A DNA stretch of 64,000 nt from Calditrichota bacterium (GTDB taxonomy: Bacteria > Calditrichota > Calditrichia > RBG-13-44-9 > J042), in assembly GCA_013150955.1 (NCBI GenBank), contig JAADJD010000062.1, positions 49,416 through 113,415 on the forward strand, written 5' to 3'. How positions within the stretch are numbered: position 1 is the first letter of the stretch; every line of letters starts with the position of its first letter. Below are positions 4,243 to 63,360 of this stretch, piece by piece. The position numbers and the translations under genes are program-made. The notes below the pieces were generated by a model. That model saw nothing but the letters and a program-made list of their open reading frames with translations, made no database searches and was not told where the DNA came from.

Positions 4243-5547
4243 TTGATCAGCGAACTTATTCTCTACACAATTGTCTTCTTCATCTTACTCAGTCTCTCCG
4301 CTTTCTTTTCCGGTTCAGAAACAGCTTACTTCTCCCTGTCGCCGGCCACGGTGGATCGTTTTCGCAGTTCGCGGAAACGGGCTGAACAACGAGTAGCCAC
4401 CCTGTTAACCAATCCGCGGCAGTTGCTGATCACCATCGTTGTCGGGAACACGCTGGTAAACATCACCACCGCCTCGCTGGCGGCCATCCTGACCGAGCGC
4501 ATCTCCAGGGCCATGCAGGTCAGCCAGCACATTGGCCTCATCGTTGATGTGATTGTAGTAACCTTTGTCATACTGATTGCCAGCGAAATATTGCCCAAGG
4601 TGATTGCCGTCCGGGACGCCGAACGATACGCCCGCCTGAGCAGTCGCTTTCTTTCCTTTTTCTACTACCTGATTTTTCCCGTCAGCTATTTCCTGGCCCG
4701 ATTCACCCGATTCCTCCAGAAACGCCTGGGATTCACCGAGGACAAAACTTTCCTCTCCGAAGAGGAGCTGAAAACTCTGGTGGAAATGGGGGAAGAACAC
4801 GGGACGCTTCAAAAGGACGAGCGGGAAATGATCCACAGCATCTTCGAGTTTGGGGAAACTACAGTAAAAGAGATTATGGTTCCGCGAACAGACATGGTTT
4901 GCGTGGAGGCCAGCACCACCCTTACCGATCTTATGAAACTGGTGAAAACCAAATTGCATTCGCGCATTCCCGTCTATAAGGGGCGGATTGATAACGTCAT
5001 TGGAATACTGTATGTTAAAGACCTGCTGCCCTATCTCACCAAACGGCGCCGGGAACGGCTGGATCTGGAGAAGCTGGTTCGTCCGGCTTACTTTGTACCC
5101 GAACAAAAGAAGATCGACGAACTGTTGCGCGAGTTCCAGAAAGAACGCATCCACATGGCACTGGTGGTGGATGAGTACGGGGGCATTGCGGGACTGGTTA
5201 CCCTGGAGGACATTATTGAGGAAATCGTTGGAGAAATACAGGACGAGTACGACAAGGAAGCGCCATTGTACAAAAAAATCGATGAAAACACCTTCATCGT
5301 GGATGGCCGCATGCCGCTGGAAGAAATCAACGAGGAACTGCACCTGAATCTGCCCACAGAAGAAGGGTTCGAAACCATCAGCGGATTCATCCTGAGCAAG
5401 CTGGGAGCCCTTCCCAAAGAAAAGGAAAAAGTCGAGTACGATGGTTACGTGTTCATCGTCGAACGGGTAACCCGGAATCGCATCATCAAGGTGCGGATTG
5501 AAAAGATACAACCGGATGTGCGGGTAGAGGATGAAGTCCAGAGCTGA
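4243..5547 (+). CDS. HlyC/CorC-family protein (DUF21 membrane domain, CBS pair, CorC_HlyC C-terminal domain)
   Basis: The N-terminus has four hydrophobic helices with the GSETAY motif, followed by CBS domains and a transporter-associated C-terminus. A TTG start at 4243 sits 13 nt downstream of AGAGAGGAGA. Confidence 0.8.
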   Translation: MISELILYTIVFFILLSLSAFFSGSETAYFSLSPATVDRFRSSRKRAEQRVATLLTNPRQLLITIVVGNTLVNITTASLAAILTERISRAMQVSQHIGLIVDVIVVTFVILIASEILPKVIAVRDAERYARLSSRFLSFFYYLIFPVSYFLARFTRFLQKRLGFTEDKTFLSEEELKTLVEMGEEHGTLQKDEREMIHSIFEFGETTVKEIMVPRTDMVCVEASTTLTDLMKLVKTKLHSRIPVYKGRIDNVIGILYVKDLLPYLTKRRRERLDLEKLVRPAYFVPEQKKIDELLREFQKERIHMALVVDEYGGIAGLVTLEDIIEEIVGEIQDEYDKEAPLYKKIDENTFIVDGRMPLEEINEELHLNLPTEEGFETISGFILSKLGALPKEKEKVEYDGYVFIVERVTRNRIIKVRIEKIQPDVRVEDEVQS

Positions 5548-6922
5548 GCACGAGGTTGTACTTCGGGCCATTCCACCTGTAAAGGAATTGCTTGACCATC
5601 CCCTTTTCCAACTATTTCCGGTCTCTCGACCCTTTTTAAAACGCATCATTCAGCAGGAAATCGAACGCTTCCGCCAGCAGGTAGTTCAGCAACAGCTGGC
5701 CATCACGCCGGAATCTGTGGCCAGGCGGCTGCAGGAACAGATTACCAATCGGCTTCGTCGACTGGTATCGGCGCAACTCACGCGGGTCATCAACGCCACG
5801 GGTATCATCGCCCACACCAATCTGGGACGGGCCCCACTGGCACCGGCGGCCATCGAGGCCATCCGTCAGCTGGCGGGAGGCTATTGCAACCTGGAATTTC
5901 AGCTGGCCTCTGGAGGTCGCGGCCGCCGTGAATCCAATGTGGAAACCCTGCTCCAGCTGCTGACCGGTGCTGAAGCGGCGCTGGTAGTCAACAACAACGC
6001 GGCCGCGGTTTTGCTGGTCTTGCACGCCCTGGCCCGGCGACGCGAAGTGATTGTATCCCGCGGTGAACTGGTGGAAATCGGGGGCTCCTTTCGCCTGCCA
6101 GAAGTGCTGCAGACCAGTGGTGCCAGGCTGGTAGAAATTGGCACTACCAACAAAACCCGCCTGGATGATTACCGGAAAGCCATTGGTCCCCGCACGGCAG
6201 CCATTTTGAAAGTCCATCCCAGTAATTATCGCGTGGTGGGGTTCACCCAGTCGGTGGCGATCCAGGAACTTTCCCCGCTGTGCCGGAACCACGGCATCCC
6301 ACTGATTTACGATCTGGGCAGCGGAGCCCTGGTCGATCTGCAACAATGGCAACTCCCGGCAGAACCGGTGGCATCCCGGGCGCTGCAGGATGGCGCGGAC
6401 ATCGTCACCTTCAGCGGCGATAAGGTGCTGGGAGGCCCACAGGCCGGAATCATCATCGGCAAGAAGGCGTATCTGGATAAAATTCGCCGGCACCCGTTAA
6501 CCCGCGCCCTCCGCTGCGACAAATTGACCTACGCCGCATTGGAAGCCACCCTGCGATTGTATTTACAGCCGGAATCACTTCCACAACACCTTCCGGTCCT
6601 GCATTTGCTAACCACCCCGGTGGAACACCTGCGCCAACGGGCACAAACCATCGTCGATACGCTAACCACCCGGGCTGTCCAGGCACGCATTGTTCCCTCC
6701 ACGGCACAAATGGGCAGTGGTGCCCTGCCGCTGGAGACCATACCTTCCATTGCCGTGGAACTGACCCCGCGGAAATTCTCCGCTGCCACCATCGCCCGCA
6801 AACTGCGGCAAAACTCGCCGCCCATCATTGGCTACGTGCAGGATGAAAAAGTTTTCCTGGACATGCGCACGGTGGACGCTTCCGAACTGGCCGAGATTAT
6901 CAAAGCCATTAACCGGCTGTAG
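5531..6922 (+). CDS. selA: L-seryl-tRNA(Sec) selenium transferase (selenocysteine synthase)
   Basis: The PLP-lysine motif FSGDKVLGGPQAG is present. The protein is about 460 aa. It overlaps the preceding gene by 17 nt. Confidence 0.85.
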   Translation: MKSRAEHEVVLRAIPPVKELLDHPLFQLFPVSRPFLKRIIQQEIERFRQQVVQQQLAITPESVARRLQEQITNRLRRLVSAQLTRVINATGIIAHTNLGRAPLAPAAIEAIRQLAGGYCNLEFQLASGGRGRRESNVETLLQLLTGAEAALVVNNNAAAVLLVLHALARRREVIVSRGELVEIGGSFRLPEVLQTSGARLVEIGTTNKTRLDDYRKAIGPRTAAILKVHPSNYRVVGFTQSVAIQELSPLCRNHGIPLIYDLGSGALVDLQQWQLPAEPVASRALQDGADIVTFSGDKVLGGPQAGIIIGKKAYLDKIRRHPLTRALRCDKLTYAALEATLRLYLQPESLPQHLPVLHLLTTPVEHLRQRAQTIVDTLTTRAVQARIVPSTAQMGSGALPLETIPSIAVELTPRKFSAATIARKLRQNSPPIIGYVQDEKVFLDMRTVDASELAEIIKAINRL

Positions 6923-7235: not shown

Positions 7236-7389
7236 CTATCCACCGATTCAAAAAAATTTCTTTCAGGTAGCTTTACGGAAACATTGTCTCTCAAAAATTT
7301 ATATTTATTTTTGCTCAATCGCGTCATTCGTGGTCCAAGGCTTGATTTGGGTTTATTTTATTTTAAGACCCGGCAACGAAGGGGTGGGA

Positions 7390-9318
7390 ATGCGGACAGG
7401 AAGACAATACGTCATCGGAACGGCCGGTCACATTGATCACGGAAAAACGGCCCTGGTAAAGGCTCTGACCGGTGTGGATACCGATCGGTTGCCGGAGGAA
7501 AAGGCGCGCGGCATTACCATTGATCTGGGATTTGCCCATTTAAACGATCGCATCACCATCATTGACGTTCCAGGACACGAGCGGTTGATAAAAAATATGG
7601 TGGCCGGCGTCAGCACCATCGATCTGGTGCTGTTTGTGGTGGCCGCCGACGATGGCCTGATGCCACAGACCCATGAACATCTGGAAATCGTTCGTTTATT
7701 AAATATTCCCCGGGGTGTTTTTGCCCTCACCAAAATCGACCTGGTCTCCCCGGAGTGGTGCGAGCTGGTGAAAAGCGAGCTGCAAAACCGCCTGAAAGGA
7801 ACCCCCTTTGAACAGGCACCCATCGTTCCCACCAGTGTGGTGACCGGGGAAGGCATCCAGACCCTGAGAGAAACCCTTTTGCAAATGCTACGAGAAATAC
7901 CGCCGCGAATGAGCCGGGACTATTTTCGAATGCCGGTGGATCGGGTGTTTACCCGCAAAGGATTTGGTACCATTGTAACCGGCACCGTGCTAAGTGGCCA
8001 GCTAACGACGGGCACCTTACTGGAGTTGCAACCTTCCGGGAAGACGGTGCGCGTGCGCGGACTGCAGACGCATGGACGGGACGTGGACTCCGTGGAAACG
8101 GGCGATCGTGCGGCGCTGAATCTGGCCGGCGTTGAGCAACAGGAGGTTAAACGTGGAATGGTGCTCATCACCCCGGACTATGCAGCACCGGCCGAATCTC
8201 TGACCGTCTACCTGCAGGTGCTTTCCGACTCCCCAATCCCCCTGAAAAGTCATCAGCGGATCCGCCTGCACATTCATACCGAAGAAGTCATGGGACGATT
8301 GGTCATCCCCGGCAACCAGGCACTGCCTCCGGGACGTTCCGCTTACATTCAGATCCGTCTGGAAAAGCCCATCCAGGCGTGCTACGGGGATCGGTTCATT
8401 GTGCGTCAGTACTCGCCCCAGGTCACCCTCGGTGGGGGCATGGTGCTCCAGGTCAATCCCCCGCGATTCCGAAAAAAGTGGGAATCCCTTTTTCTGGAAA
8501 CCGCCCGCCAGCTTCATCAGGGCACACCGGAGGAACGTATCCTGGCGTTGTTGAATCCCCTGACCGTGAAGCCGCTCTCCTTCCGGCAACTGCAGGTGGG
8601 GACGGATCTTCCCGCCGGGGAGTTGACCAGGCGGCTTCAGTCCCTCCTCTCCCGGAAGGACATTCACTCCCTTATCCTGGACGGCCACCCCCACTATTTT
8701 TCCCGGTTTCAGGCCCGGGTCATTTTACACGATTTGCAGCGAATCCTGGAAAAATACCATCACGACCACACTCTGCTCCCTGGAATGCCGCGGAAGGAGT
8801 TGCTGGCCGCCATGCCACATCGTTATCACCCGGATTTAATCGCCGCTGTTCTTGATCTGGGAATTCAGGGAAATCACATTCAGGTGGTGGGGAATCGACT
8901 GGCATTGCCAGCGCATGCGACCCGGTCGTCTGCCGACACGGAAGCCTGGCTGCAGCGCTTGCGTAACGCCATCGAATCTGCAGAGTGGCGTCCACAGCCG
9001 ATCGAATCCATTGGCCGGGAACTGGAAATTCCTCGCAAAACATTAAAGACGCTACTAACCCTGCTCATTGAGTCGGGAGAAATCTATCCCGTAAACCACA
9101 CCTATTACCTATCCCGAGATGCATACCAGAAGATGGTGCAACGGGTACGGGACTATTTTCAGAAAAAGGCACACATGCGGGTCAGCGATTTTAAAACGCT
9201 GCTGAACATCACCCGAAAACACGCCATTCCCTTGCTGGAATTTCTGGATGCCCGGGGCATTACCCGACGGGAAGGGGATGTGCGCCTGGCGGGAGACCGG
9301 CTACAGGCCGATCCCTGA
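7390..9318 (+). CDS. selB: selenocysteine-specific translation elongation factor SelB
   Basis: GTAGHIDHGKT is a P-loop, and DxPGH is present (IIDVPGHE). A long C-terminal extension of about 300 aa is consistent with the winged-helix SECIS-binding domains. ATG at 7390 follows GAAGGGGTGGG. Confidence 0.85.
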   Translation: MRTGRQYVIGTAGHIDHGKTALVKALTGVDTDRLPEEKARGITIDLGFAHLNDRITIIDVPGHERLIKNMVAGVSTIDLVLFVVAADDGLMPQTHEHLEIVRLLNIPRGVFALTKIDLVSPEWCELVKSELQNRLKGTPFEQAPIVPTSVVTGEGIQTLRETLLQMLREIPPRMSRDYFRMPVDRVFTRKGFGTIVTGTVLSGQLTTGTLLELQPSGKTVRVRGLQTHGRDVDSVETGDRAALNLAGVEQQEVKRGMVLITPDYAAPAESLTVYLQVLSDSPIPLKSHQRIRLHIHTEEVMGRLVIPGNQALPPGRSAYIQIRLEKPIQACYGDRFIVRQYSPQVTLGGGMVLQVNPPRFRKKWESLFLETARQLHQGTPEERILALLNPLTVKPLSFRQLQVGTDLPAGELTRRLQSLLSRKDIHSLILDGHPHYFSRFQARVILHDLQRILEKYHHDHTLLPGMPRKELLAAMPHRYHPDLIAAVLDLGIQGNHIQVVGNRLALPAHATRSSADTEAWLQRLRNAIESAEWRPQPIESIGRELEIPRKTLKTLLTLLIESGEIYPVNHTYYLSRDAYQKMVQRVRDYFQKKAHMRVSDFKTLLNITRKHAIPLLEFLDARGITRREGDVRLAGDRLQADP

Positions 9319-33633: not shown

Positions 33634-33757
33634 TCATTCCCTCTTGAGCCAATCACAGGCAATTGGCATTGATTTTGAAATATTCATTCGGCGGAAATTG
33701 AAATCCCTGCAAAATTGACACATCAGGAAAAATTTAAAACCGAAAGGGGGTGACAAA

Positions 33758-34387
33758 ATGGTCATGGAAGTCAAACCTCGGGAACAGGTAGACGAAAAAG
33801 TGGATCAGATGGCATTGAGGATTTTCCTTAAGGCTCTGGAACTACTGGGAGGCCCCCGAAAACTGGTGGAATACCGCAATTTAACCTGGTTGCCTTCTTT
33901 GATGGAGGCGGCCTACACGGTGGTGCTGTTCAATGATTACATGAAAACGGAAGCCGAAATTGCCGAAATGCTGGGGTTGACCCGGAACACGGTGGCTCAG
34001 ATCTTGCGTGCGGTGCCCGAAATTGTAAAAGAAAAACTGGAAGGAACGATTAAGGACTCCGTCAAAACCCACACCGCTGGTGCTCTGGCCAAAATTGCCT
34101 ACCAGGAAATTAAGGAAGGTAGGGAAAACATTGATTTTCTCACTTACTTTTCTCAAAAAACCCTGGAAGCCGTGGGCTACACCTGGCCTATCGAGGTGCT
34201 GGTGCGACTGAAAGGTGTGGACTTCCCGGCCAATCGCGAGGTGCTACTGGAAAAACTATCCGATCTCTCTGTGGAAGGCAGGCCGCTACCGGAATTATTG
34301 CGCCAAATGGATGCTACCGTTTTTCCAGTTCAGAGCCCATCCCAACTGTTGCACCATATTAAAGAAATGCTGGCAGGTTCCCGCTAA
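33758..34387 (+). CDS. hypothetical protein with predicted helix-turn-helix (putative regulator)
   Basis: EIAEMLGLTRNTVAQIL is HTH-like. GGGGGTGA lies upstream of ATG. The gene is flanked on both sides by repeat-element copies. Confidence 0.5.
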   Translation: MVMEVKPREQVDEKVDQMALRIFLKALELLGGPRKLVEYRNLTWLPSLMEAAYTVVLFNDYMKTEAEIAEMLGLTRNTVAQILRAVPEIVKEKLEGTIKDSVKTHTAGALAKIAYQEIKEGRENIDFLTYFSQKTLEAVGYTWPIEVLVRLKGVDFPANREVLLEKLSDLSVEGRPLPELLRQMDATVFPVQSPSQLLHHIKEMLAGSR

Positions 34388-34745: not shown

Positions 34746-35942
34746 ATGGCGTCTTCTTCGTCCTCTTCGCAGGGCAAACATTCCCTTCCACGGAATGTCT
34801 GGATTCTGGGACTGGTCAGCCTGTTTAACGACATCGCCTCAGAAATGATCTATCCCATCGTTCCCATTTTTCTCACCCGCACGCTGGGTGCTTCAGCCGC
34901 GATTGTGGGAATCATTGAGGGTATTGCGGAAGCGACGGCCAGCGTTCTAAAGGTATTTTCCGGCTGGCTTTCCGACCGATTTCGCCACCGCAAGAAGTTT
35001 GTGATTGCCGGCTATGCGTTGTCCGCGCTGGCAAAGCTGGTGCTTTCGCTGGCCAGCATATGGTGGCACGTCCTGGGGGCTCGCTTTATTGATCGCTTTG
35101 GCAAGGGAACCCGCACCGCCGCCCGAGATGCCCTGATAGCGGATTCTACCGCCGAGCACCAGCGCGGGGCCGCGTTTGGCATGCATCGGGCCATGGATAC
35201 CCTGGGGGCCATCATCGGGCCGCTGCTGGCACTGGCCCTGCTGCATTTCCTGGGCGAACGTTTCACGCTGATTTTTCTGCTGGCTTTCTTTCCCGGACTG
35301 TTGGCCCTGGGACTGCTCTTCTGGGGCGTGAAAGAGCCTCCACGACGCAGCGACATCCAGCGGTTGACATTTCGCCTCTCCCTGCAACAATTCACCCGGC
35401 CGTTCAAACACTTTCTTCTGGTTAGCCTGGTATTTGCACTGGGCAACAGCTCCGATGCCTTCCTCATCCTGCGTGCCCAATCCATGGGCTATACCACCAC
35501 CCAGACGGTATTTCTTTACGTTCTTTTTAACCTCTTTTTTGCGGGACTGGCTTATCCCATCGGGCGACTGTCGGATCGACTGGGTGCACGGCGGGTTTTG
35601 CTGGGGTCCTTCTTCTTTTTCGGAACCATCTATCTGGGATTTGCCCTGGCTTCCGGCCCACGCCTGCTCATCGCCCTGTTTCCGCTTTACGGAATTTACA
35701 TGGCCATGAGCGAGGGCATCAGCAAAGCCTACATTACCCAGATTGTACCGGAAAATATTCGAGCTACGGCGCTGGGAACCTACTACACTTTGACGGGGCT
35801 CATCACGTTTTTTGCCAGCAGTCTGGCCGGTCTAATGTGGCACTACCTGGATGTTCGGGCTCCCTTTTATTTCGGTGCCGGTATGGCGTTTCTGGCAGGA
35901 ATTTTGTTTCTGCCGGCATATGGAAGGAAAACGAGGGATTAA
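34746..35942 (+). CDS. MFS transporter
   Basis: 12 TM helices. The ATG at 34746 (MASSSSSS) was chosen because the ORF-track start at 34638 falls inside a repeat element. Confidence 0.75.
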   Translation: MASSSSSSQGKHSLPRNVWILGLVSLFNDIASEMIYPIVPIFLTRTLGASAAIVGIIEGIAEATASVLKVFSGWLSDRFRHRKKFVIAGYALSALAKLVLSLASIWWHVLGARFIDRFGKGTRTAARDALIADSTAEHQRGAAFGMHRAMDTLGAIIGPLLALALLHFLGERFTLIFLLAFFPGLLALGLLFWGVKEPPRRSDIQRLTFRLSLQQFTRPFKHFLLVSLVFALGNSSDAFLILRAQSMGYTTTQTVFLYVLFNLFFAGLAYPIGRLSDRLGARRVLLGSFFFFGTIYLGFALASGPRLLIALFPLYGIYMAMSEGISKAYITQIVPENIRATALGTYYTLTGLITFFASSLAGLMWHYLDVRAPFYFGAGMAFLAGILFLPAYGRKTRD

Positions 35943-55524: not shown

Positions 55525-55652
55525 AATAAACCCTCAACAAGTTTCCATCCAAGATATAATCTTTTTATTTGTGTTCATTCGTGTTATTCGTGGTCTCATG
55601 GATAAATCGCATTGTGTCGCGCTCATCGTGCTCAAAACAGAATCCAGATTAA
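55525..55652 (+). mobile_element. MITE-like element partial copy K (right half only)
   Basis: AATAAACCCTCAACAAGTTTCCATCCAAGATATAATCTTTTTATTTGTGTTCATTCGTGTTATTCGTGGTCTCATGGATAAATCGC ... CAGATTAA. Confidence 0.45.
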
Positions 55653-57019
55653 AATTTGTAAGAAAGACCGATCATGACCCGCGTTACCCGGATATCTTCC
55701 AGCGTTCCACCCGGCGTCAAGGCGTCTTCGGACTCCTGCTTCCAGGCACCATACAGATAGGTGATGTTTAACGATACGTACTGATCCAGTTTAAAGCCCA
55801 ATCCAGAGGTCAAATACACCCGATCCATCGTTTTGGGGGCACCCTGGTAAGGCGCGGGAATGTAAATGTAACCACCGCGCACACGAAGCATTTCCCCCAG
55901 TGCCCATTCACCGCCGATCTGATAGCGGATGGTCTCCCGATACTCCCGCCGGATAACGCGATTTTCATCCAGTAAAGCGGCATAATCGGGATCGTCCATG
56001 GAATTCTCCGGGATGACAAACCGGGTTTGCGACCAATCCCGATACCGGAAACTGGCGGCCAGGGTGAACGGCTTCACCCTCAACGAAATACCGCCATCGA
56101 AATAAAACGGCGTCTGGACTTTGTACTGGAATTCTCCTCGATCCAGTTCTTGCTGGTCACTAAAACCATCGTCGTAGACCAGTTCATCGGTTGCCAGATA
56201 GGATTCGGTTACCGTAAAGGTCACCGGCAATCCAATGGTAGCCCCCAGACGGGCAAATCCGCCCAGTTTAAACATACCCCCAATTTTCATCCCGATGGCC
56301 GAATACTGGGACTGGATGGACTCTTCGTATTTGTACGAATAAAAATCGGCTACCATTTTAGGTTCTGAGTATTCATTGTAAATATCTTCCTGGTAAAAGA
56401 ACAATTGATAATTTTCCCGTCCCCGCCAGATGTCCAGACTGACCCCGAGGTCAAAATTGGGGGACAACGCAATGGCCGCCGCAACGCTCCAGTTCCGTAA
56501 TCCACCTTCGTTGTTCACTTCCTCGGTCTGCTGGACATTCTTATCAAACGGGTAATAAACTTCCTGCCCATCTTCGATAACCGGGATTTCCAGACCATTG
56601 CTCTGGGTATTGAATCCCTCAAAGAGCAGGGAACGATCAAAATCTTTCACCCGGTTGTAACCAAAGCCAAGCACAAAGCTGCCTCGCGTGGTAGGAAGAG
56701 GCAGGGCAAATCCAATCGCCCGCACCTGGGTAAAGCCCTGACTTTGATCGGTGGTTACACCATAAAAGGTTGCCGAATTGTTGAAATTTATGTGAGACAA
56801 TTCTCCATAAAATTCCGATTGCCGCAGGGAAGCCAGTCCCGCTGGATTCCAGTAGATGGATAAATAATTATCCGTGGTTGCGGTGAAAGCACCGCCCATG
56901 GACAGGGCACGGGCACCAAAGCCCATCTCGTCCTGCACAATCCGAACCGCATCGAACGCACTTTGACCCCACAGGTTGACACCGAGCATCAGTAACAGAG
57001 AAACAACACCCCGCCACAT
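55649..57019 (-). CDS. outer-membrane beta-barrel protein, FadL-like (paralogue of the 41244-42533 gene)
   Basis: The signal peptide, the NPAGLA motif and the C-terminal ...LSYKF support the call. Confidence 0.65.
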   Translation of the reverse strand: MWRGVVSLLLMLGVNLWGQSAFDAVRIVQDEMGFGARALSMGGAFTATTDNYLSIYWNPAGLASLRQSEFYGELSHINFNNSATFYGVTTDQSQGFTQVRAIGFALPLPTTRGSFVLGFGYNRVKDFDRSLLFEGFNTQSNGLEIPVIEDGQEVYYPFDKNVQQTEEVNNEGGLRNWSVAAAIALSPNFDLGVSLDIWRGRENYQLFFYQEDIYNEYSEPKMVADFYSYKYEESIQSQYSAIGMKIGGMFKLGGFARLGATIGLPVTFTVTESYLATDELVYDDGFSDQQELDRGEFQYKVQTPFYFDGGISLRVKPFTLAASFRYRDWSQTRFVIPENSMDDPDYAALLDENRVIRREYRETIRYQIGGEWALGEMLRVRGGYIYIPAPYQGAPKTMDRVYLTSGLGFKLDQYVSLNITYLYGAWKQESEDALTPGGTLEDIRVTRVMIGLSYKF

Positions 57020-57047: not shown

Positions 57048-58328
57048 TTAACGCCGTTTAATCGTTGCCCGGGAAGACGTTCCCCGGCTGGAACTGGAAG
57101 AGCGGCTGCTTCCGCTCCAGCTGCTTCGCGAAGAGGAACTGGATGAAGACCGATAACTGGGCCGGCTGGACGATCGAGACGGCGACCGATAGCTGGGCCG
57201 ACTGGAAGAACTGGATCGGCTGGATCGATAGGATGGCCGGGACGAGCTGCTCTTCCGGGCAGGCGCTACCGACTCCTGACGTGACTTTCGATAGCTCCGG
57301 TACTTTTTAGTTTCGCTACTGCGAGTCCGTCGGATTTCCCGGGTGTGCGAAGATCCATTTTCCCGCGCGCGAACCACTTTCTTTTCCGTCCGCCGCGGGC
57401 TTTTAGTCCGAACCACCTTGCGCTCACTTCGCTTTGAAGAGCGGACGTCTTTCTTGACTCGCCTCTTTTCTTCGGTGCTCAATCGGGCGCGTTTGCGCTC
57501 CCGATCGTAAATCTTCCGGATAATGCGCTGCTTGTCCGCATTGCGATTGCCATTAGTTAACTCCTTCGGAACCCGGGTGCGGATAATTTCTGGCGTTCGG
57601 CGCCGATTCCGTTCGCGATCAGGAACCTCCCGCTCCACCACGGTACGCTGTTTCCGCTCCGCCACCTGGCCGCGCTTACCGTTGCTGACCACCGGACTGG
57701 AAGCGACCGGTCGGACACCCCCAACCAGCGTCCGATCCGACGGTTCTCGATCACGAATCAGTGGTTTACGGCGATCCCACTCACGCCGCTTGGTCGGCGC
57801 GCGATCCACCACATATCCATAGTTGATCCATCCGCCCCAGTAAAATCCATCCCAATAATACGGCGAATATCCATAAAACCCCCAATAGCCAGTGTAATAA
57901 TAATCCCACCAGTAGTACGGATAAGACCAATACGGATAATACACCACTACCGGAGGTGGGTAATACCAGAACGGTCGACCAAAATGCAATCCAATGTGAA
58001 CACTAACAAAGGGGCCATAGAAGGGATCATAAAAGAATGGATCGTAATAAAACGGATCATAGAAAAACGGATCGTACCAGCCGCCAACAATGTAATCACG
58101 ATTGTAAAAGTAATAATTTTTAACAATGGTACGACCATAGCCGTAGTCATCGTAAGCCTCTTCCTCGTAAACGGTGTCTACCTCAGCAGTGGTATACTCT
58201 TCATCCGAATACACCACTGTGGTGGAGGTGACACCCCTCGTGGTACCAAACGTGGTATAACATCCCTGAAAAAGTAACAGCGAAACAACCGCTGTTGTTA
58301 TCATCAAAATGGATCGCCAGGATTTCAT
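57048..58328 (-). CDS. unusual lipoprotein with an aromatic-rich (Y/W/F/P) block plus an Arg/Lys/Ser-rich repetitive tail
   Basis: MKSWRSILMITTAVVSLLLFQGC is a signal with lipobox Cys. YDPFF occurs four times and a WYYPPPVVVYYPYWSYPYYWWDYYYTGYWGFYGY block follows. The C-terminal 230 aa carry about 40% R/K/S with three SSSRPSYRS units. GAGGTG lies upstream of ATG 58326-58328. Confidence 0.6.
   Translation of the reverse strand: MKSWRSILMITTAVVSLLLFQGCYTTFGTTRGVTSTTVVYSDEEYTTAEVDTVYEEEAYDDYGYGRTIVKNYYFYNRDYIVGGWYDPFFYDPFYYDPFFYDPFYGPFVSVHIGLHFGRPFWYYPPPVVVYYPYWSYPYYWWDYYYTGYWGFYGYSPYYWDGFYWGGWINYGYVVDRAPTKRREWDRRKPLIRDREPSDRTLVGGVRPVASSPVVSNGKRGQVAERKQRTVVEREVPDRERNRRRTPEIIRTRVPKELTNGNRNADKQRIIRKIYDRERKRARLSTEEKRRVKKDVRSSKRSERKVVRTKSPRRTEKKVVRARENGSSHTREIRRTRSSETKKYRSYRKSRQESVAPARKSSSSRPSYRSSRSSSSSRPSYRSPSRSSSRPSYRSSSSSSSRSSWSGSSRSSSSSRGTSSRATIKRR
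57150..57250 (-). repeat. about 27-30 bp imperfect tandem DNA repeats (x3) encoding the SSSRPSYRS units
   Basis: CGATAACTGGGCCGGCTGGACGATCGAGA, CGATAGCTGGGCCGACTGGAAGAACTGGA and CGATAGGATGGCCGGGACGAGCTGCTCTT. Confidence 0.5.
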
Positions 58329-58363
58329 GTCGATCACCTCACTTTAGTTCTACCCTTTTCTAA

Positions 58364-58380
58364 CTCAATATATGTGCCAA
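58364..58380 (-). promoter_or_regulatory. candidate sigma54 promoter (-24 TGGCAC, N5, -12 TTGAG) upstream of the lipoprotein-OMP operon
   Basis: The minus strand reads TTGGCACATATATTGAGTTA. The -24 element and spacing are exact, but the -12 element is TTGA instead of TTGC. The site lies about 35 nt upstream of the ATG and next to the NtrC-family regulator. Confidence 0.35.
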
Positions 58381-58502
58381 AAGATTCTGTGGAAAAGGGA
58401 ATATCACAAAACGACCGATTTTTCTTGAAAAATCAACGGGTTTGCCCATGCTCCTGAATGGCGGGACGATCAGACCACTGTCAACTTTGTTGACACAAGG
58501 TG

Positions 58503-59951
58503 CTAATCCAGTTTATACTTTGCCAGATCGATCCGGTACCGCTGTAGTTTTTTATGCAGTCCCATGCGACTCAAACCCAATTCCCGTGCCGTCTGGCTGA
58601 TGTTTCCCCGATTTTTTTGCAATGCCCGCTCGATAAAATACCTCTCCATCTGTTCCACCCGTTCTTTTAACTGCAATGCCCCCTGACCATTAAAAGGTGC
58701 TCCGTCTGTCGTGTGGATCTCCGGAAATTCAATCAAATCAGGTGTAATGGCCATCCCATCATCCGCCAGCACAATCGCGCGTTCGATGATATTCTCCAGC
58801 TGACGCACATTGCCCGGGTAATCGTAATCCCGCAACCGTTGGAGCGCTTCCGGGTGGATGCCGGTGATTCGCTTGCCCATCTTCAAGGAATATTTCCGGA
58901 TAAAATGATACACCAGTTCGGGGATATCCTCCCGGCGCTCCCTTAAAGGCGGCAAATGGATGGGAAACACATTCAAACGATAGAACAAATCTTCCCGAAA
59001 TTTGCCTTCCTGCACTGCCCGAGCCAGATCCCGATTGGTTGCGGAAATGACCCGGACATTCACATGAATGGCTTTTTCGGATCCCACCGGGTGAATCTCC
59101 CCTTCCTGCAATACCCGAAGCAGGCGTTTCTGAAATTCCGGGGAGGTTTCTCCAATCTCATCCAGAAAGATGGTTCCGCCATCGGCCAGTTCAAACAATC
59201 CTTTTTTATCGCGAGTGGCCCCGGTAAAGGCCCCTTTTACGTGACCAAATAATTCGCTTTCCAGAAGGGTTTCCGGTAACGAAGCACAATTCTGACTGAC
59301 AAACATTTTATGTTTACGAGGGCCGTTGTAATGAATTGCCCGGGCGACCAATTCTTTGCCCGTGCCGGTTTCCCCGGTGATTAAAACCGTGACGTCCGTG
59401 GGAATCACCTTTTTTAGCAAATGAAACACCTTTTGCATGGCCGGACTTTTGCCAATGATATGGTCGAAGGTGTATTCGGCCTCCATCTCGCGTTGCAGCA
59501 GCAAGTTTTCCGCGGCCAGCCGTTCGTTGGCCTGACGCAATTCTTCCAGTAAGCGTTCATTGTCTTTTTTCAGCTGATAATGTTCAATGGCCCGACGGAC
59601 GATCAGTCGCAACTCATCCGGTTCCCAGGGCTTTTGAATGTAGTAGAAAATTTGCCCCTCATTAATGGCCCGGATAGTGGCATCGATATCGGAATACCCG
59701 GTAATCAGGATGCGCACCGCATCCGGCTGAATGTCTCTGGCCTGCCGCAGGAATTCCACTCCGGTCATTTCGGGCATCCGTTGATCCACCAGTAAAACGG
59801 CAACCGGTTGCTTGCGGATCACTTCCAGAGCCGATAATGGCGAAGAGGACAGGATCACCTCATAGTCCCGTCGTAAAATGCGCTGAATGGCGTGCAAGAT
59901 CCCCTGTTCGTCATCCACGGCCAGAACCGTGTACCGTCGATTCGTTGACAT
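58503..59951 (-). CDS. sigma54-dependent response regulator (NtrC family: REC, AAA+ and Fis-type HTH)
   Basis: The REC domain is followed by GETGTGKE (Walker A), the GAFTGA sigma54-contact loop, ESELFGH and a C-terminal HTH. Confidence 0.9.
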   Translation of the reverse strand: MSTNRRYTVLAVDDEQGILHAIQRILRRDYEVILSSSPLSALEVIRKQPVAVLLVDQRMPEMTGVEFLRQARDIQPDAVRILITGYSDIDATIRAINEGQIFYYIQKPWEPDELRLIVRRAIEHYQLKKDNERLLEELRQANERLAAENLLLQREMEAEYTFDHIIGKSPAMQKVFHLLKKVIPTDVTVLITGETGTGKELVARAIHYNGPRKHKMFVSQNCASLPETLLESELFGHVKGAFTGATRDKKGLFELADGGTIFLDEIGETSPEFQKRLLRVLQEGEIHPVGSEKAIHVNVRVISATNRDLARAVQEGKFREDLFYRLNVFPIHLPPLRERREDIPELVYHFIRKYSLKMGKRITGIHPEALQRLRDYDYPGNVRQLENIIERAIVLADDGMAITPDLIEFPEIHTTDGAPFNGQGALQLKERVEQMERYFIERALQKNRGNISQTARELGLSRMGLHKKLQRYRIDLAKYKLD

Positions 59952-62900
59952 TATTTCCTCTCCTCATCCCTGTTTTTCCCGGTTTCCCTGGAAAGTGGCA
60001 AATAGATCCGAAAACACGTCCCCTTTCCTTCCTGACTTTCAACTTCGATGCGCCCCCCATGATCCTGAATGATCCGGTAACTGATACTCAATCCCAGTCC
60101 CGTTCCCTGGCCCACAGGTTTGGTGGTAAAAAACGGATCAAAGATCCGCGAAAGCACATCGGCTGGAATGCCTTTTCCATCGTCGCGAATCTCCACGCAC
60201 ACTCGATCCCCTTCACTGCGTGTGGTGATCCAGATGTTTCCTTTCCCCTCAATGGCCTGAATGGCATTCAACAAAAGGTTCATGAATACCTGATTGATTT
60301 GCCCGGGCTGACAGACAATTCGGGGTAGCTCGCCATACTTTTTGTGAACCCGAATCCGATCCCGAATTTCGTGGCGCAGAAGGGTCAGGGTCGATTCCAG
60401 GCCTTCGTGTAAATCCACCGACTTGAACGCCGCTTCGTCCAGTCGGGAAAAATTGCGTAAGTTTTGCACCACTTCTTTCACCCGTCGGCTTCCATCCAGG
60501 CTTTCCTGAATCAAACCATTCAAATCGTTTAAAATAAAGTCCAGATCGTATTGATCCTGTAATTGTTGTACCGTTTCTTTTAACTTTTCGGGCAGATCCC
60601 TGGCATCCCGTTGTTTTAAAATGACCTCCAGCAATCGCGAGAGCGCCTCGACATATTCCTGCAGGGTCTTCAAATTGGCATACACAAAGCTAATGGGATT
60701 ATTTAATTCGTGGGCAACCCCCGCGACCAGTTGCCCCAGACTGGACATTTTTTCGCTCTGGATGAGCTGGGCCTGCGCCTCCTTCAATTCCTGATACAAT
60801 CGCCGCAATTCCCGGTTCTTCGCTTCCAGCTCCCGCACATATTTCTCCCGCACCTCGGCCTCAGTCACCTTCTGAATCAACCGCTTGGTCTCTTCGATAT
60901 AGCGATTGTTTTCCACGGCAATGGCGGCCTGATTGGCAATAATCTGCAAAATGCTTCGATCCTCCGCATTCAATTCCCGACGTCTCTCCCCGGTTACCAG
61001 AACAATCACTGCATACAGGTTATCCTCCCGGCCAATCGGGATCAGGTAATCGCAGGGAATTCGGGTGAACTCCGGCAACTGTCTTTGAATCTCATCACAG
61101 GCCAGAATGCGCCCCCCGCTCAGAAGCGCCTGTTTAGACGGGTCGAGCGAGATTTCCGGCATTTGTGGAAGCGTTTTTCCGGAACGGGCCACCTCACGAA
61201 ACACATCGCCCTGCTTTTCCATGACCAGACAGAGCGATATTTCCAGCGCCCGGTGAATGGTGGAAGCCAGCTGGGAGAACAGCTCCTGATTGGTTTTAAT
61301 TAAAATCAAATCCCGCGAAAATGCCTGCAGCAGACGGCGATAGCCAAACCGCTTTTCCTCCACCCGGCGAATTTTCTCCAGCACCACGGTGGCCGCCCCG
61401 ATCACCACCAGCAAAACCCCCAGCTGGGTGGTTAAAATTTTTCGTACCGGCTCTTCCCGATACATCCAGAACACCCCGTAAAGCAGCCCAATCATTAACA
61501 GAATGAAGGCATTAAAACTCACATTGCGCCAGTGGTAGCGCGAGCCAGCCAGGGAAAGAAAGGCCACAATGATGCCAAAAATCAATAACGACAATCCCAG
61601 ATTGATCCAGAAATCCAGTTGTTGAACCAGGCGACCCAGGGAATGCATCATTCGGTAGGACACCTTCCGCAGGCCGGTTTTTTCTTCCACGATGTACACA
61701 TTTCCCGGTTTCAGCCCGGAACGCCAGCGTTCGGTGCCGGAGGGGAAGACGATTCGCGCAGTGTATTGTCCCCCGGCGTCCACCCCAAAATGGGCCACCA
61801 GTTCGCTCAGGGATAAATAACCCTGTCCCCCACTGATTTCCCGAAAACCAACCAGCACCAGGCTGTCCCGCTCATCTCGTTTATACAACCACACCCGGGT
61901 GCCCACAGCATCGCGATTGCTCCCGACCCCTTCAAGGATCAGGCGGACATAATTTTTGTTATTTAACGGATTGAGATACAGAACGGAATGGGTGTCCTTG
62001 TTGGCCACAAATACGTCCAGATCACCATCGTCATCCAGATCCGCTACCGCCACCCCGGTGCTGTAATTCTGGTTTCGAACGGTACCCGGGAGCCGTTCCT
62101 CAAACACCCGTTCCAGCAGCTGCCCATTTCGATTCAAATAAAATTGATTGGGGCCAATGTTGGAGAAAAAAACATCCTGCCACCCGTCGTTGTTTAGATC
62201 AGCAATGATACCGCCATACGCCGGGTAGGGATTGGCCACCTGAAACGGCCGGGGAGCTTCCTCAAATTGCCAGTTCGTGTCCCCGGCCGCTGTATGATTC
62301 AGATACAGGCGACTGTGGCCATCGCGATCCGCAACCAGAAAATCGAGATCGCCATCATTATCCACATCGCCAAAAACCACGCTGTTGCTATTCACCGCGT
62401 GTTGGAGGTGAAACAACGGCAAAGAAACCGGACGGAAGGACATTCCCCCGCGATTTTCATAAAGCGTATCTGGAGCAAACCAATTGCAAACGTAGAGATC
62501 CAGATCACCATCCCCATCCACATCGGCAAAGGCCGCACCCTGACTTACCGCACGCGAAGCCACCCCATATGCCGACGCCCGATCGCGAAAATACCGCCCA
62601 TCGTAATTGATGAACAGATGATTGGCATGGTGCTCGTCCGTAACGAACAAATCCAGGTCACCATCGCCATCCACGTCTCCCCAGATTCCCATATTGCCAT
62701 CCAGGGGACGCCGCAACCCCATCTCTTCGGTCACATCCTGAAAACGAAAATGGGGCAACTGGCGAAACAATCGGGTACTGACCCCCCACCCCAGAATCAG
62801 CACATCCACCCGGCCGTCATCGTCAAAATCGACGGCCGATCCGCCAAGCTCCAGATTAACCTTTTTGCGCGGCATAAGGTTACCCCCCAGGCCGGTGGCG

Positions 62901-63211
62901 ATGGTTCGATCTTCGAAGGTTTGCCCTCCCTGGTTCACAAATAACCGGTTGAGATTCCGAAATCGCACCACATAAAGATCCGGATAACCATCATGATTCA
63001 AATCGCGAAACACCACCCCGTAACTGTCCCCAAACTCCGGTAATAGAGAATGACTCACCGGTTGGGCAAACATCCGGGCGACCCAGAGGGAATCTCCAGT
63101 TGCACCTGCAGAACTCATGAATAAAAAAATCAGGCCAATAGCCCCCAGCCAGCGCATGCTCCCGCACGGTGAAAAGCCTGGGGAACGCTCACAGTAGGTT
63201 ACTGTTTCCAT
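59951..63211 (-). CDS. sensor histidine kinase with extracytoplasmic seven FG-GAP repeats plus UnbV_ASPIC domain, TM, coiled coil, HisKA and HATPase_c
   Basis: Seven D-x-D/N-x-D-G-x-x-D FG-GAP blades are present (for example FGDVDNDGDLDFLV). The ASPIC/UnbV block is VGTRVWLYKRDERDSLVLVGFREISGGQGY. The H-box is HELNNP and the G-boxes are DDGKGIP and GTGLGL. The start is ATG 63209-63211, TTG 63214, or ATG 63157 if the signal peptide is cleaved. Confidence 0.8.
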   Translation of the reverse strand: METVTYCERSPGFSPCGSMRWLGAIGLIFLFMSSAGATGDSLWVARMFAQPVSHSLLPEFGDSYGVVFRDLNHDGYPDLYVVRFRNLNRLFVNQGGQTFEDRTIATGLGGNLMPRKKVNLELGGSAVDFDDDGRVDVLILGWGVSTRLFRQLPHFRFQDVTEEMGLRRPLDGNMGIWGDVDGDGDLDLFVTDEHHANHLFINYDGRYFRDRASAYGVASRAVSQGAAFADVDGDGDLDLYVCNWFAPDTLYENRGGMSFRPVSLPLFHLQHAVNSNSVVFGDVDNDGDLDFLVADRDGHSRLYLNHTAAGDTNWQFEEAPRPFQVANPYPAYGGIIADLNNDGWQDVFFSNIGPNQFYLNRNGQLLERVFEERLPGTVRNQNYSTGVAVADLDDDGDLDVFVANKDTHSVLYLNPLNNKNYVRLILEGVGSNRDAVGTRVWLYKRDERDSLVLVGFREISGGQGYLSLSELVAHFGVDAGGQYTARIVFPSGTERWRSGLKPGNVYIVEEKTGLRKVSYRMMHSLGRLVQQLDFWINLGLSLLIFGIIVAFLSLAGSRYHWRNVSFNAFILLMIGLLYGVFWMYREEPVRKILTTQLGVLLVVIGAATVVLEKIRRVEEKRFGYRRLLQAFSRDLILIKTNQELFSQLASTIHRALEISLCLVMEKQGDVFREVARSGKTLPQMPEISLDPSKQALLSGGRILACDEIQRQLPEFTRIPCDYLIPIGREDNLYAVIVLVTGERRRELNAEDRSILQIIANQAAIAVENNRYIEETKRLIQKVTEAEVREKYVRELEAKNRELRRLYQELKEAQAQLIQSEKMSSLGQLVAGVAHELNNPISFVYANLKTLQEYVEALSRLLEVILKQRDARDLPEKLKETVQQLQDQYDLDFILNDLNGLIQESLDGSRRVKEVVQNLRNFSRLDEAAFKSVDLHEGLESTLTLLRHEIRDRIRVHKKYGELPRIVCQPGQINQVFMNLLLNAIQAIEGKGNIWITTRSEGDRVCVEIRDDGKGIPADVLSRIFDPFFTTKPVGQGTGLGLSISYRIIQDHGGRIEVESQEGKGTCFRIYLPLSRETGKNRDEERK

Positions 63212-63360
63212 CAATGTGGACTTTTCCCCGTTGCATTAAGTGTTTAAGCATGTAACGACTCGAATTACCCTGAATACACAACGCTTAAGTAAAGATGTTC
63301 ACGCAGATAAAACGAACCGCGATTTGCAAAAATTCCTCTGAAACCATTCGATTTGAAGCC

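Follow-up and report, generated by a model that had tools for sequence, protein, structure and literature searches.

Results

A sensor kinase, a regulator and a lipoprotein-barrel gene pair lie in a row

The window, i.e., the whole 64,000-nt (64 kb) stretch of Calditrichota DNA that was analysed, contains on its minus strand the following features, given in the direction of transcription:

59951..63214, minus strand: sensor histidine kinase gene (Pfam and translation)
58503..59951, minus strand: NtrC-type response regulator gene, with REC, Sigma54_activat (AAA+) and HTH_8 domains
57048..58328, minus strand: lipoprotein gene, 426 aa, first gene of the putative target operon
55649..57019, minus strand: FadL/TodX-like outer-membrane beta-barrel gene (Pfam Toluene_X), 456 aa
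55442..55475, minus strand: strong hairpin with a 13-bp stem, in the interval that separates the OMP gene from the convergent EamA gene

The kinase ORF as listed comprises 1,087 aa and starts from a TTG at 63214; an ATG near 63157 (MRWLGAIG...) is the likelier start. The protein consists of a signal/TM segment, a periplasmic region of ~530 aa, three TM segments, and then GAF, HisKA and HATPase domains. The periplasmic region contains FG-GAP repeats and an ASPIC/UnbV domain, as identified with Pfam. The TAA stop codon of the kinase gene overlaps the ATG of the regulator gene (TAATG). The regulator matches the Pfam families Response_reg (1.4e-19), Sigma54_activat (2.9e-74) and HTH_8 (6.9e-14), and has both a Walker A motif, GETGTGK, and an intact GAFTGA, the loop that contacts sigma-54. 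A preliminary description of this DNA had classed the regulator as sigma-54-dependent and coupled to the FG-GAP kinase, and the GAFTGA loop and the TAATG overlap bear this out. The best NCBIfam matches of the regulator score 440 bits against an equivalog cut-off of 714 (AtoC), 402 against 559 (NtrC) and 365 against 760 (ZraR); since it stays below every equivalog cut-off in NCBIfam, no named regulator is its orthologue. Among orthologues of the regulator, the sigma-54 contact loop reads GAFTDA in six of the Marinimicrobia type (L009, L011, L032, L040, L088 and L090) and GSFTGA in two others (L012 and L014).

The ATG of the lipoprotein gene (58328-58326) is preceded by the Shine-Dalgarno sequence GAGGTGA (58340-58334). 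The encoded protein begins with the signal peptide MKSWRSILMITTAVVSLLLFQG-C, in which the lipobox LFQG-C is followed by YTT, and continues with an acidic stretch, a region rich in Y, W, F, P and D, an RREWDRR motif, and a long tail rich in R, K and S. It is a low-complexity, strongly basic protein, for which no family was found in Pfam or NCBIfam. The barrel gene begins 28 nt past the lipoprotein stop codon and has a Shine-Dalgarno sequence of its own. Its product shows weak, sub-cut-off matches to BamG and PorV in NCBIfam, and has homologues across Calditrichia, Marinimicrobia and other phyla. The hairpin at 55475-55442 is likely the terminator at which the lipoprotein-barrel operon ends. Elsewhere in the window, selA (5531-6922, plus strand) and selB (7330-9318, plus strand) are adjacent; because these genes for the selenocysteine machinery lie side by side, the organism probably makes selenoproteins.

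A -24/-12 element precedes the lipoprotein gene

Two features are predicted in the spacer between the regulator and lipoprotein genes, immediately before the latter:

58364..58380, minus strand: predicted sigma-54 core promoter, TTGGCACATATATTGAG
~58353 (58351..58355), minus strand: predicted transcription start, a G, from the distance rule of PMC4591121

Read directly, the minus strand at 58380-58364 is TTGGCACATATATTGAG. The -24 element, TGGCAC, occupies 58379-58374, with its GG at 58378-58377, and a 5-nt spacer, ATATA, separates it from the -12 element, TTGA, at 58368-58365. The GG-N10-GA spacing in TTGGCACATATATTGAG is canonical, and the site has the GG-N10-G that serves as the criterion of -24/-12 promoters. 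The consensus C right after the -12 G is absent from TTGGCACATATATTGAG; an A stands in its place. The 17-mer is intergenic and points at the lipoprotein gene. The preliminary description had reported a TGGCAC-5 nt-TTGA element with a non-canonical -12 at these minus-strand positions, about 35 nt from the lipoprotein ATG and about 120 bp after the regulator gene. The sequence proved correct when it was re-read, and the distances are 35 nt to the ATG and 122 nt from the regulator stop codon (TAG, 58505-58503).

The exact pattern TGGCAC-N5-TTG(A/C) occurs only once in the 64 kb, namely at 58380-58364; when one mismatch is allowed, the window holds 13 matches, versus 9.5 expected. We also scored the window with a generic matrix, derived from the list of sigma-54 ChIP-seq motifs that PMC4591121 gives for E. 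coli (135 sites). With this matrix the site reaches 12.0 bits, which ranks it 10th of 127,968 window positions and places it at the 20th percentile among the real E. coli sites. In random sequence with matching first-order composition, 6.6 equally good matches are expected per 64 kb. With the consensus C instead of A, the site would reach 16.2 bits. That is, the sequence match taken alone is no more than chance would give; the position and conservation of the site are far beyond chance.

The predicted start lies 24 nt 3' of the second G of the GG pair and 19 nt 3' of the motif centre, and would leave a 5' UTR of ~25 nt. This predicted 5' UTR folds no better than shuffled sequence (z = 0.04), and an Rfam scan of the regulator-lipoprotein spacer gave no match. 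An 8-nt perfect inverted repeat, CCCTTTTC / GAAAAGGG, lies around the -24/-12 element at 58353-58360 and 58392-58399; its arms are 31 nt apart, and it is only partly retained in two related loci (L081 and L083).

Three other candidate elements were rejected. The sigma-70-like sequence TTTCCA-17-TATATT, which overlaps the site, is discarded as the main promoter: it is weak (9/12), sigma-70-like matches in the region are not above those in shuffled sequence (5 vs 3.4), and its -10 bases vary among orthologues. A Bacteroidota-type -33/-7 promoter is discarded as well, since what is invariant is GG, A and TTG at sigma-54 spacing, and not TAnnTTTG/TTTG. Lastly, a hairpin at 58449-58436 is not taken to be a terminator, as it has only 5 bp, is weak, and is not conserved in L081. 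No convincing terminator was found between the regulator gene and the promoter, and read-through from the regulator gene may contribute to expression of the operon.

The element is retained in distant relatives

Loci with homologues of the barrel were taken from genome and metagenome collections. The gene order kinase-regulator-lipoprotein-OMP recurs in about 20 of them, from Calditrichota and Marinimicrobia MAGs. The element GG[CT]A[CT]-N5-TTG is present, once per spacer, in all 18 independent regulator-lipoprotein spacers from these two groups. Invariant across the orthologous spacers are the GG, the A, the TTG and the 5-nt spacing. In dinucleotide shuffles the chance of such an element is 0.4-9% per spacer; the product over all regions is ~8e-30. 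The distance from the element to the lipoprotein start is 22-63 nt in most orthologues and about 225-247 nt in three. In these three (L006, L087 and L108) the distance is to the annotated start; the leader may be long, a small ORF may precede the gene, or the start codon may have been set wrongly.

The site lies in a 28-nt block, AGAATCTTTTGGCACATATATTGAGTTA, that two close relatives share with the window at 100% identity; outside this block, spacer identity is 74% in one relative and 57% in the other (the OMP proteins being 90% and 81% identical, respectively). We then derived a second matrix from 17 distant orthologous sites, with neither the window nor its close relatives among them. With this orthologue matrix the site in the window comes first of 127,956 positions, at 20.6 bits versus 17.5 bits for the runner-up.

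A scan with a sigma-54 matrix had been proposed earlier as a check on the site, with a score below background to count against it. Taken literally, the outcome with the E. coli matrix is of that kind, because the score is not above background, but that test is too weak to decide; the matrix trained on orthologues, in contrast, ranks the site first. Judged on the comparative evidence, which is decisive here, the element is very probably a genuine sigma-54 promoter.

A palindrome near the regulator stop codon co-varies with the regulator

Upstream of the predicted promoter, the spacer contains two palindromes:

58479..58495, no strand: putative enhancer (UAS), a perfect 7-3-7 palindrome, TGTCAACAAAGTTGACA
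58417..58434, no strand: A/T-tract palindrome, GATTTTTC-AA-GAAAAATC, at ~-73, between the putative enhancer and the promoter

Inverted-repeat enhancer sites 80-150 bp upstream had been named in the preliminary description as a feature to look for, and TGTCAACAAAGTTGACA is indeed present at that distance: it begins 8 nt past the regulator stop codon and is centred at ~-134 from the predicted start. The palindrome is unique in the window, where a search for further copies returned only matches with 3 mismatches, at chance level. It is 100% and 82% conserved in the two close relatives. Most of the syntenic loci have palindromes of the same form between -102 and -162; in a few loci they are degenerate. 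The form is TGT-N11-ACA, or TGC-N11-GCA in some lineages. In loci of the Marinimicrobia type the palindrome is usually duplicated, at a separation of 23-24 bp (33 bp in a single case); many relatives have two palindromes, and the lineage of the window one clear one.

Across loci, the half-sites of the palindrome co-vary with the recognition helix in the HTH domain of the adjoining regulator:

Recognition helix SRMGLHKK: half-site TGTCAAC
Recognition helix SRVGLQKK: half-site TGCTAAC/GTTAGCA (three loci)
Recognition helix SRAGLYKK: half-site TGTATAC
Recognition helix SRSGLYIK: half-site TGTCTAA

Of all the evidence on what binds the palindrome, this co-variation is the strongest, and it makes the adjoining regulator, rather than another protein, the likely ligand of TGTCAACAAAGTTGACA.

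The A/T-tract palindrome GATTTTTC-AA-GAAAAATC is only partly conserved in the relatives. It may act as a bend that aids looping of the DNA. No IHF consensus was found between the putative enhancer and the promoter.

Other sigma-54-like sequences in the window

The top match to the E. coli matrix in the window, with 15.3 bits, is a second candidate sigma-54 promoter, TTGGCATTGATTTTGAA, at 33663-33679 on the plus strand. It is located between genes, 79 nt ahead of an ORF (33758-34387) that encodes a TIGR03879 'near_KaiC' regulatory domain; no EBP gene adjoins it. The candidate is conserved in three related loci, L167, L169 and L170, as TTGGCACAGAAATTGTA, ATGGCACGGAAATTGAA and TTGGCATCAATTTTGAC, with the -12 elements TTGT, TTGA and TTGA, respectively. 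The base after TTG in this second promoter family, which comes from the same lineage and is unrelated to that of the lipoprotein operon, is A, T, A and A in the window and its three relatives. A further sequence, CTGGCAGGAATTTTGTT at 35892-35908 (plus strand), scores 13.2 bits with the E. coli matrix and 17.5 bits with the orthologue matrix; it lies inside the 3' end of an MFS transporter gene, with no obvious gene on the same strand after it. Upstream of the kinase gene, TTGGCACGAATTATC at 63539-63525 (minus strand) has a perfect -24-like hexamer, without a TTG at -12. It is flagged by neither matrix and is probably a chance occurrence.

No apparent selection for C at the -12 element

In E. 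coli, C follows the -12 G in 125 of 135 bound sites. Among the 10 that lack it are confirmed promoters, namely those of pspA and pspG (TTGT) and of hydN (GTGA) (PMC4591121). In-vitro selection with the sigma-54 holoenzyme of P. putida yielded the -12 motifs TTGCAT and TTGAAT and the -24 motifs TTGGCA and TTGGTA (PMC11997794). This motif set covers both the TTGGCA/TTGA of the window and the TTGGTA variants of three loci (L002, L003 and L031), with the qualification that it was obtained on artificial templates with a proteobacterial holoenzyme, and not one from Calditrichota (PMC11997794).

The base after TTG in the 18 syntenic loci is C in 3, T in 8, A in 6 and G in 1. Across 29 distinct promoters of lipoprotein-OMP operons the counts are C 11, T 11, A 6 and G 1; that is, 18 of the 29 have a base other than C. 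If the 18 syntenic sites are pooled with the four sites of the second family, C is found in 3 of 22, which differs from E. coli with a Fisher p of ~2e-14, a value weakened by the phylogenetic non-independence of the 22 sites. Since TTGA and TTGT variants are on record for E. coli and P. putida, and a base other than C is common in this operon family, the A at -12 is tolerable. Judging from these aligned sites, the consensus C appears not to be selected in the lipoprotein-OMP promoter family.

The lipoprotein-barrel pair is found in several phyla

In a wider survey, 53 loci had a gene for a matching lipoprotein immediately before that of the barrel; they include Bacteroidota, Ignavibacteriota, Poribacteria and Latescibacterota. 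A -24/-12 motif lies within 300 nt in 37 of the 53. The family of lipoproteins is characterised by a G-C-Y-T-Q lipobox, an acidic stretch, a core rich in Y, W, F, P and D, and a disordered tail rich in R, K, S and G that ends in RR; a KR(D/E)W(D/N)RR motif is seen in the members from Calditrichota and Marinimicrobia. In about 50 loci with lipoprotein ORFs (e.g., L003, L026, L021 and L025), the next gene is always that of the FadL-like barrel.

In several of these loci, TGGCA(C/T)-N5-TTG(C/T/A) is found upstream of the pair with no orthologue of the regulator in the flanks that were fetched. These are L022, L025 and L029 in Poribacteria, L026, L033, L044 and L101 in Ignavibacteriota, and L020, L021 and L034 in Bacteroidota. 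Because the motif is present without a neighbouring regulator orthologue, sigma-54 control of the operon seems to be older than its linkage to the kinase-regulator pair. Our literature searches returned nothing relevant on sigma-54 in Calditrichota or Caldithrix, and no paper describing the lipoprotein-barrel operon.

Discussion

A probable local sigma-54 circuit and its alternatives

We consider it probable, with good confidence, that the element at 58380-58364 is a functional sigma-54 promoter of the lipoprotein-OMP operon, and that it is driven by the adjoining regulator. A local circuit of sensor, EBP and target operon had been suggested in the preliminary description, and three findings from the sequence comparison lend it support: the GAFTGA loop of the regulator, the retention of the element in 18 of 18 spacers, and a palindrome that co-varies with the HTH.

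The circuit that we infer would operate as follows; this applies to the sigma-54 dependence of the promoter, the binding of the palindrome by the regulator and the start site as much as to the signal and to what the products do. The periplasmic FG-GAP/ASPIC domain of the kinase would sense a cue from the envelope or from outside the cell, and the kinase would phosphorylate the REC domain of the co-translated NtrC-type regulator. The regulator would then bind TGTCAACAAAGTTGACA at ~-134 through its HTH_8 domain and oligomerise. With possible help in bending from the A/T-tract palindrome at 58434-58417, it would loop to the closed complex of sigma-54 holoenzyme on TGGCAC-N5-TTGA, where the AAA+ ring and the GAFTGA loop, by ATP hydrolysis, would open the promoter. 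The resulting bicistronic lipoprotein-barrel mRNA would start near 58353 and end at the hairpin at 55475-55442.

A gene for sigma-54 itself, rpoN, was not found by Pfam annotation of about 39 ORFs of the window or by a tblastn search of the window and of 1.4 Mb of related loci with E. coli RpoN as the query, a search whose coverage makes it uninformative on the genome as a whole. We infer the presence of rpoN from the conserved, intact EBP and from the near-universality of sigma-54 and its activators in LPS diderms (PMC3162934).

Several alternatives to a promoter driven by its neighbour have to be weighed. The Bacteroidota, Ignavibacteriota and Poribacteria operons, which have the -24/-12 motif and no nearby regulator orthologue, imply that adjacency is not required for sigma-54 control of the operon, and only one clear palindrome is seen in the lineage of the window. 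One could thus suppose that sigma-54 holoenzyme does bind the site but is activated by a distant EBP, the palindrome being the operator of some other factor or an element of the 3' end of the regulator gene. This we regard as improbable: across lineages, a change in the recognition helix of the adjoining regulator is matched by one in the half-sites, a position of -102 to -162 is typical of enhancers, and about 20 loci have the kinase-regulator pair in synteny with the operon. Nor does the palindrome resemble a terminator, since it is AT-rich, lacks a T-run and has a 3-nt centre.

That the site is a chance look-alike of a sigma-54 promoter is very unlikely in our assessment. Transcription of the operon would then come from a promoter of the housekeeping type or from read-through out of the kinase and regulator genes, and the real target of the regulator would lie elsewhere. 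Such an account would explain why the score of the E. coli matrix is at background level, and it could draw on the sigma-70-like sequence that overlaps the site and on the weakness and non-conservation of the single hairpin (58449-58436) after the regulator gene. Against it stands the comparison with relatives, in which GG...TTG with a fixed 5-nt spacing is kept in every one of the 18 spacers while the bases of the would-be -10 hexamer vary freely, and in which a 28-nt block is perfectly identical among close relatives; sigma-70-like matches in the region, moreover, do not exceed those in shuffled sequence (5 vs 3.4).

Least credible of all is a holoenzyme that stays at the site without productive transcription and acts there as an insulator or roadblock behind the regulator gene. 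The site would then resemble the many non-promoter sites of E. coli, where numerous bound sites have no known transcript (PMC4591121), and its non-consensus -12 could affect isomerisation. On the other side, the site lies between genes in the right orientation, an enhancer-like palindrome is found at the expected distance, and the start-to-ATG distance, ~25 nt with a strong Shine-Dalgarno sequence, is as conserved as the motif.

Comparison with known systems

With a functional, regulator-driven promoter as the preferred reading, the locus resembles ZraS/ZraR-zraP and AtoS/AtoC-atoDAEB of E. coli, in which a kinase and a REC-AAA+-HTH_8 regulator are likewise encoded beside the sigma-54 promoter that they control. 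The inverted-repeat enhancer sites of ZraR- and AtoC-type circuits are found, as here, roughly 100-150 bp upstream, and AtoC, NtrC and ZraR are the best NCBIfam matches of the regulator. In contrast to ZraS and AtoS, however, the sensor has a large periplasmic FG-GAP/ASPIC domain, and the target is an uncharacterised low-complexity lipoprotein together with a FadL-like barrel, behind a -12 element that reads TTGA. With respect to this last feature, the pspA, pspG and hydN promoters of E. coli are comparable, in that they also lack the consensus C after the -12 G, but sites of this kind are rare there (10/135), whereas they form the majority in the lipoprotein-OMP family (18/29). PspF is without a receiver domain.

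The upstream activator sequence of NifA is TGT-N10-ACA, located >100 bp upstream of a -24/-12 promoter. The putative enhancer is similar in being a palindrome with TGT...ACA ends at more than 100 bp upstream. It differs in its spacing, TGT-N11-ACA within a 17-bp 7-3-7 palindrome, and in the TGC...GCA ends of some lineages; the regulator, too, is of the phospho-receiver type and not a GAF-NifA.

Sigma-54 has been described as the controller of the bacterial exterior, e.g., in the case of Borrelia Rrp2-RpoN and lipoproteins (Francke et al. 2011, PMC3162934). A sigma-54/EBP pair that goes with envelope components, i.e., a lipoprotein and an OMP, in a diderm would fit that generalisation, although both the lipoprotein-OMP operon and Calditrichota lie outside the survey on which it was based (PMC3162934). 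A cross-phylum survey of sigma-54 regulons from 2025 makes no mention of Calditrichota (PMC12316311).

Implications

The biology described here is that of a standard sigma-54/EBP circuit, and the surprise is modest. Two features go beyond the ordinary: the C at -12 appears not to be under selection, and the sigma-54-linked lipoprotein/barrel module spans several phyla. A testable regulatory wiring has been gained for an envelope module that is uncharacterised and belongs to mostly uncultured phyla, and the likely DNA site of its regulator is defined.

A wider proposal can be put forward only tentatively, as a possibility that we would not call probable: that the sigma-54 of Calditrichota, Marinimicrobia and possibly more of the FCB group reads a shorter -12 element, TTG(N), and that the GCY-lipoprotein and FadL-like barrel constitute an ancient sigma-54-controlled envelope module. 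If this were true, the interaction at the -12 element and fork junction would have changed, and a module spread over several phyla would so far have gone undescribed. Because the C at -12 is dispensable here, generic sigma-54 matrices would miss promoters of this type, and a class of promoters missed in this way would matter for the prediction of regulons in the FCB superphylum.
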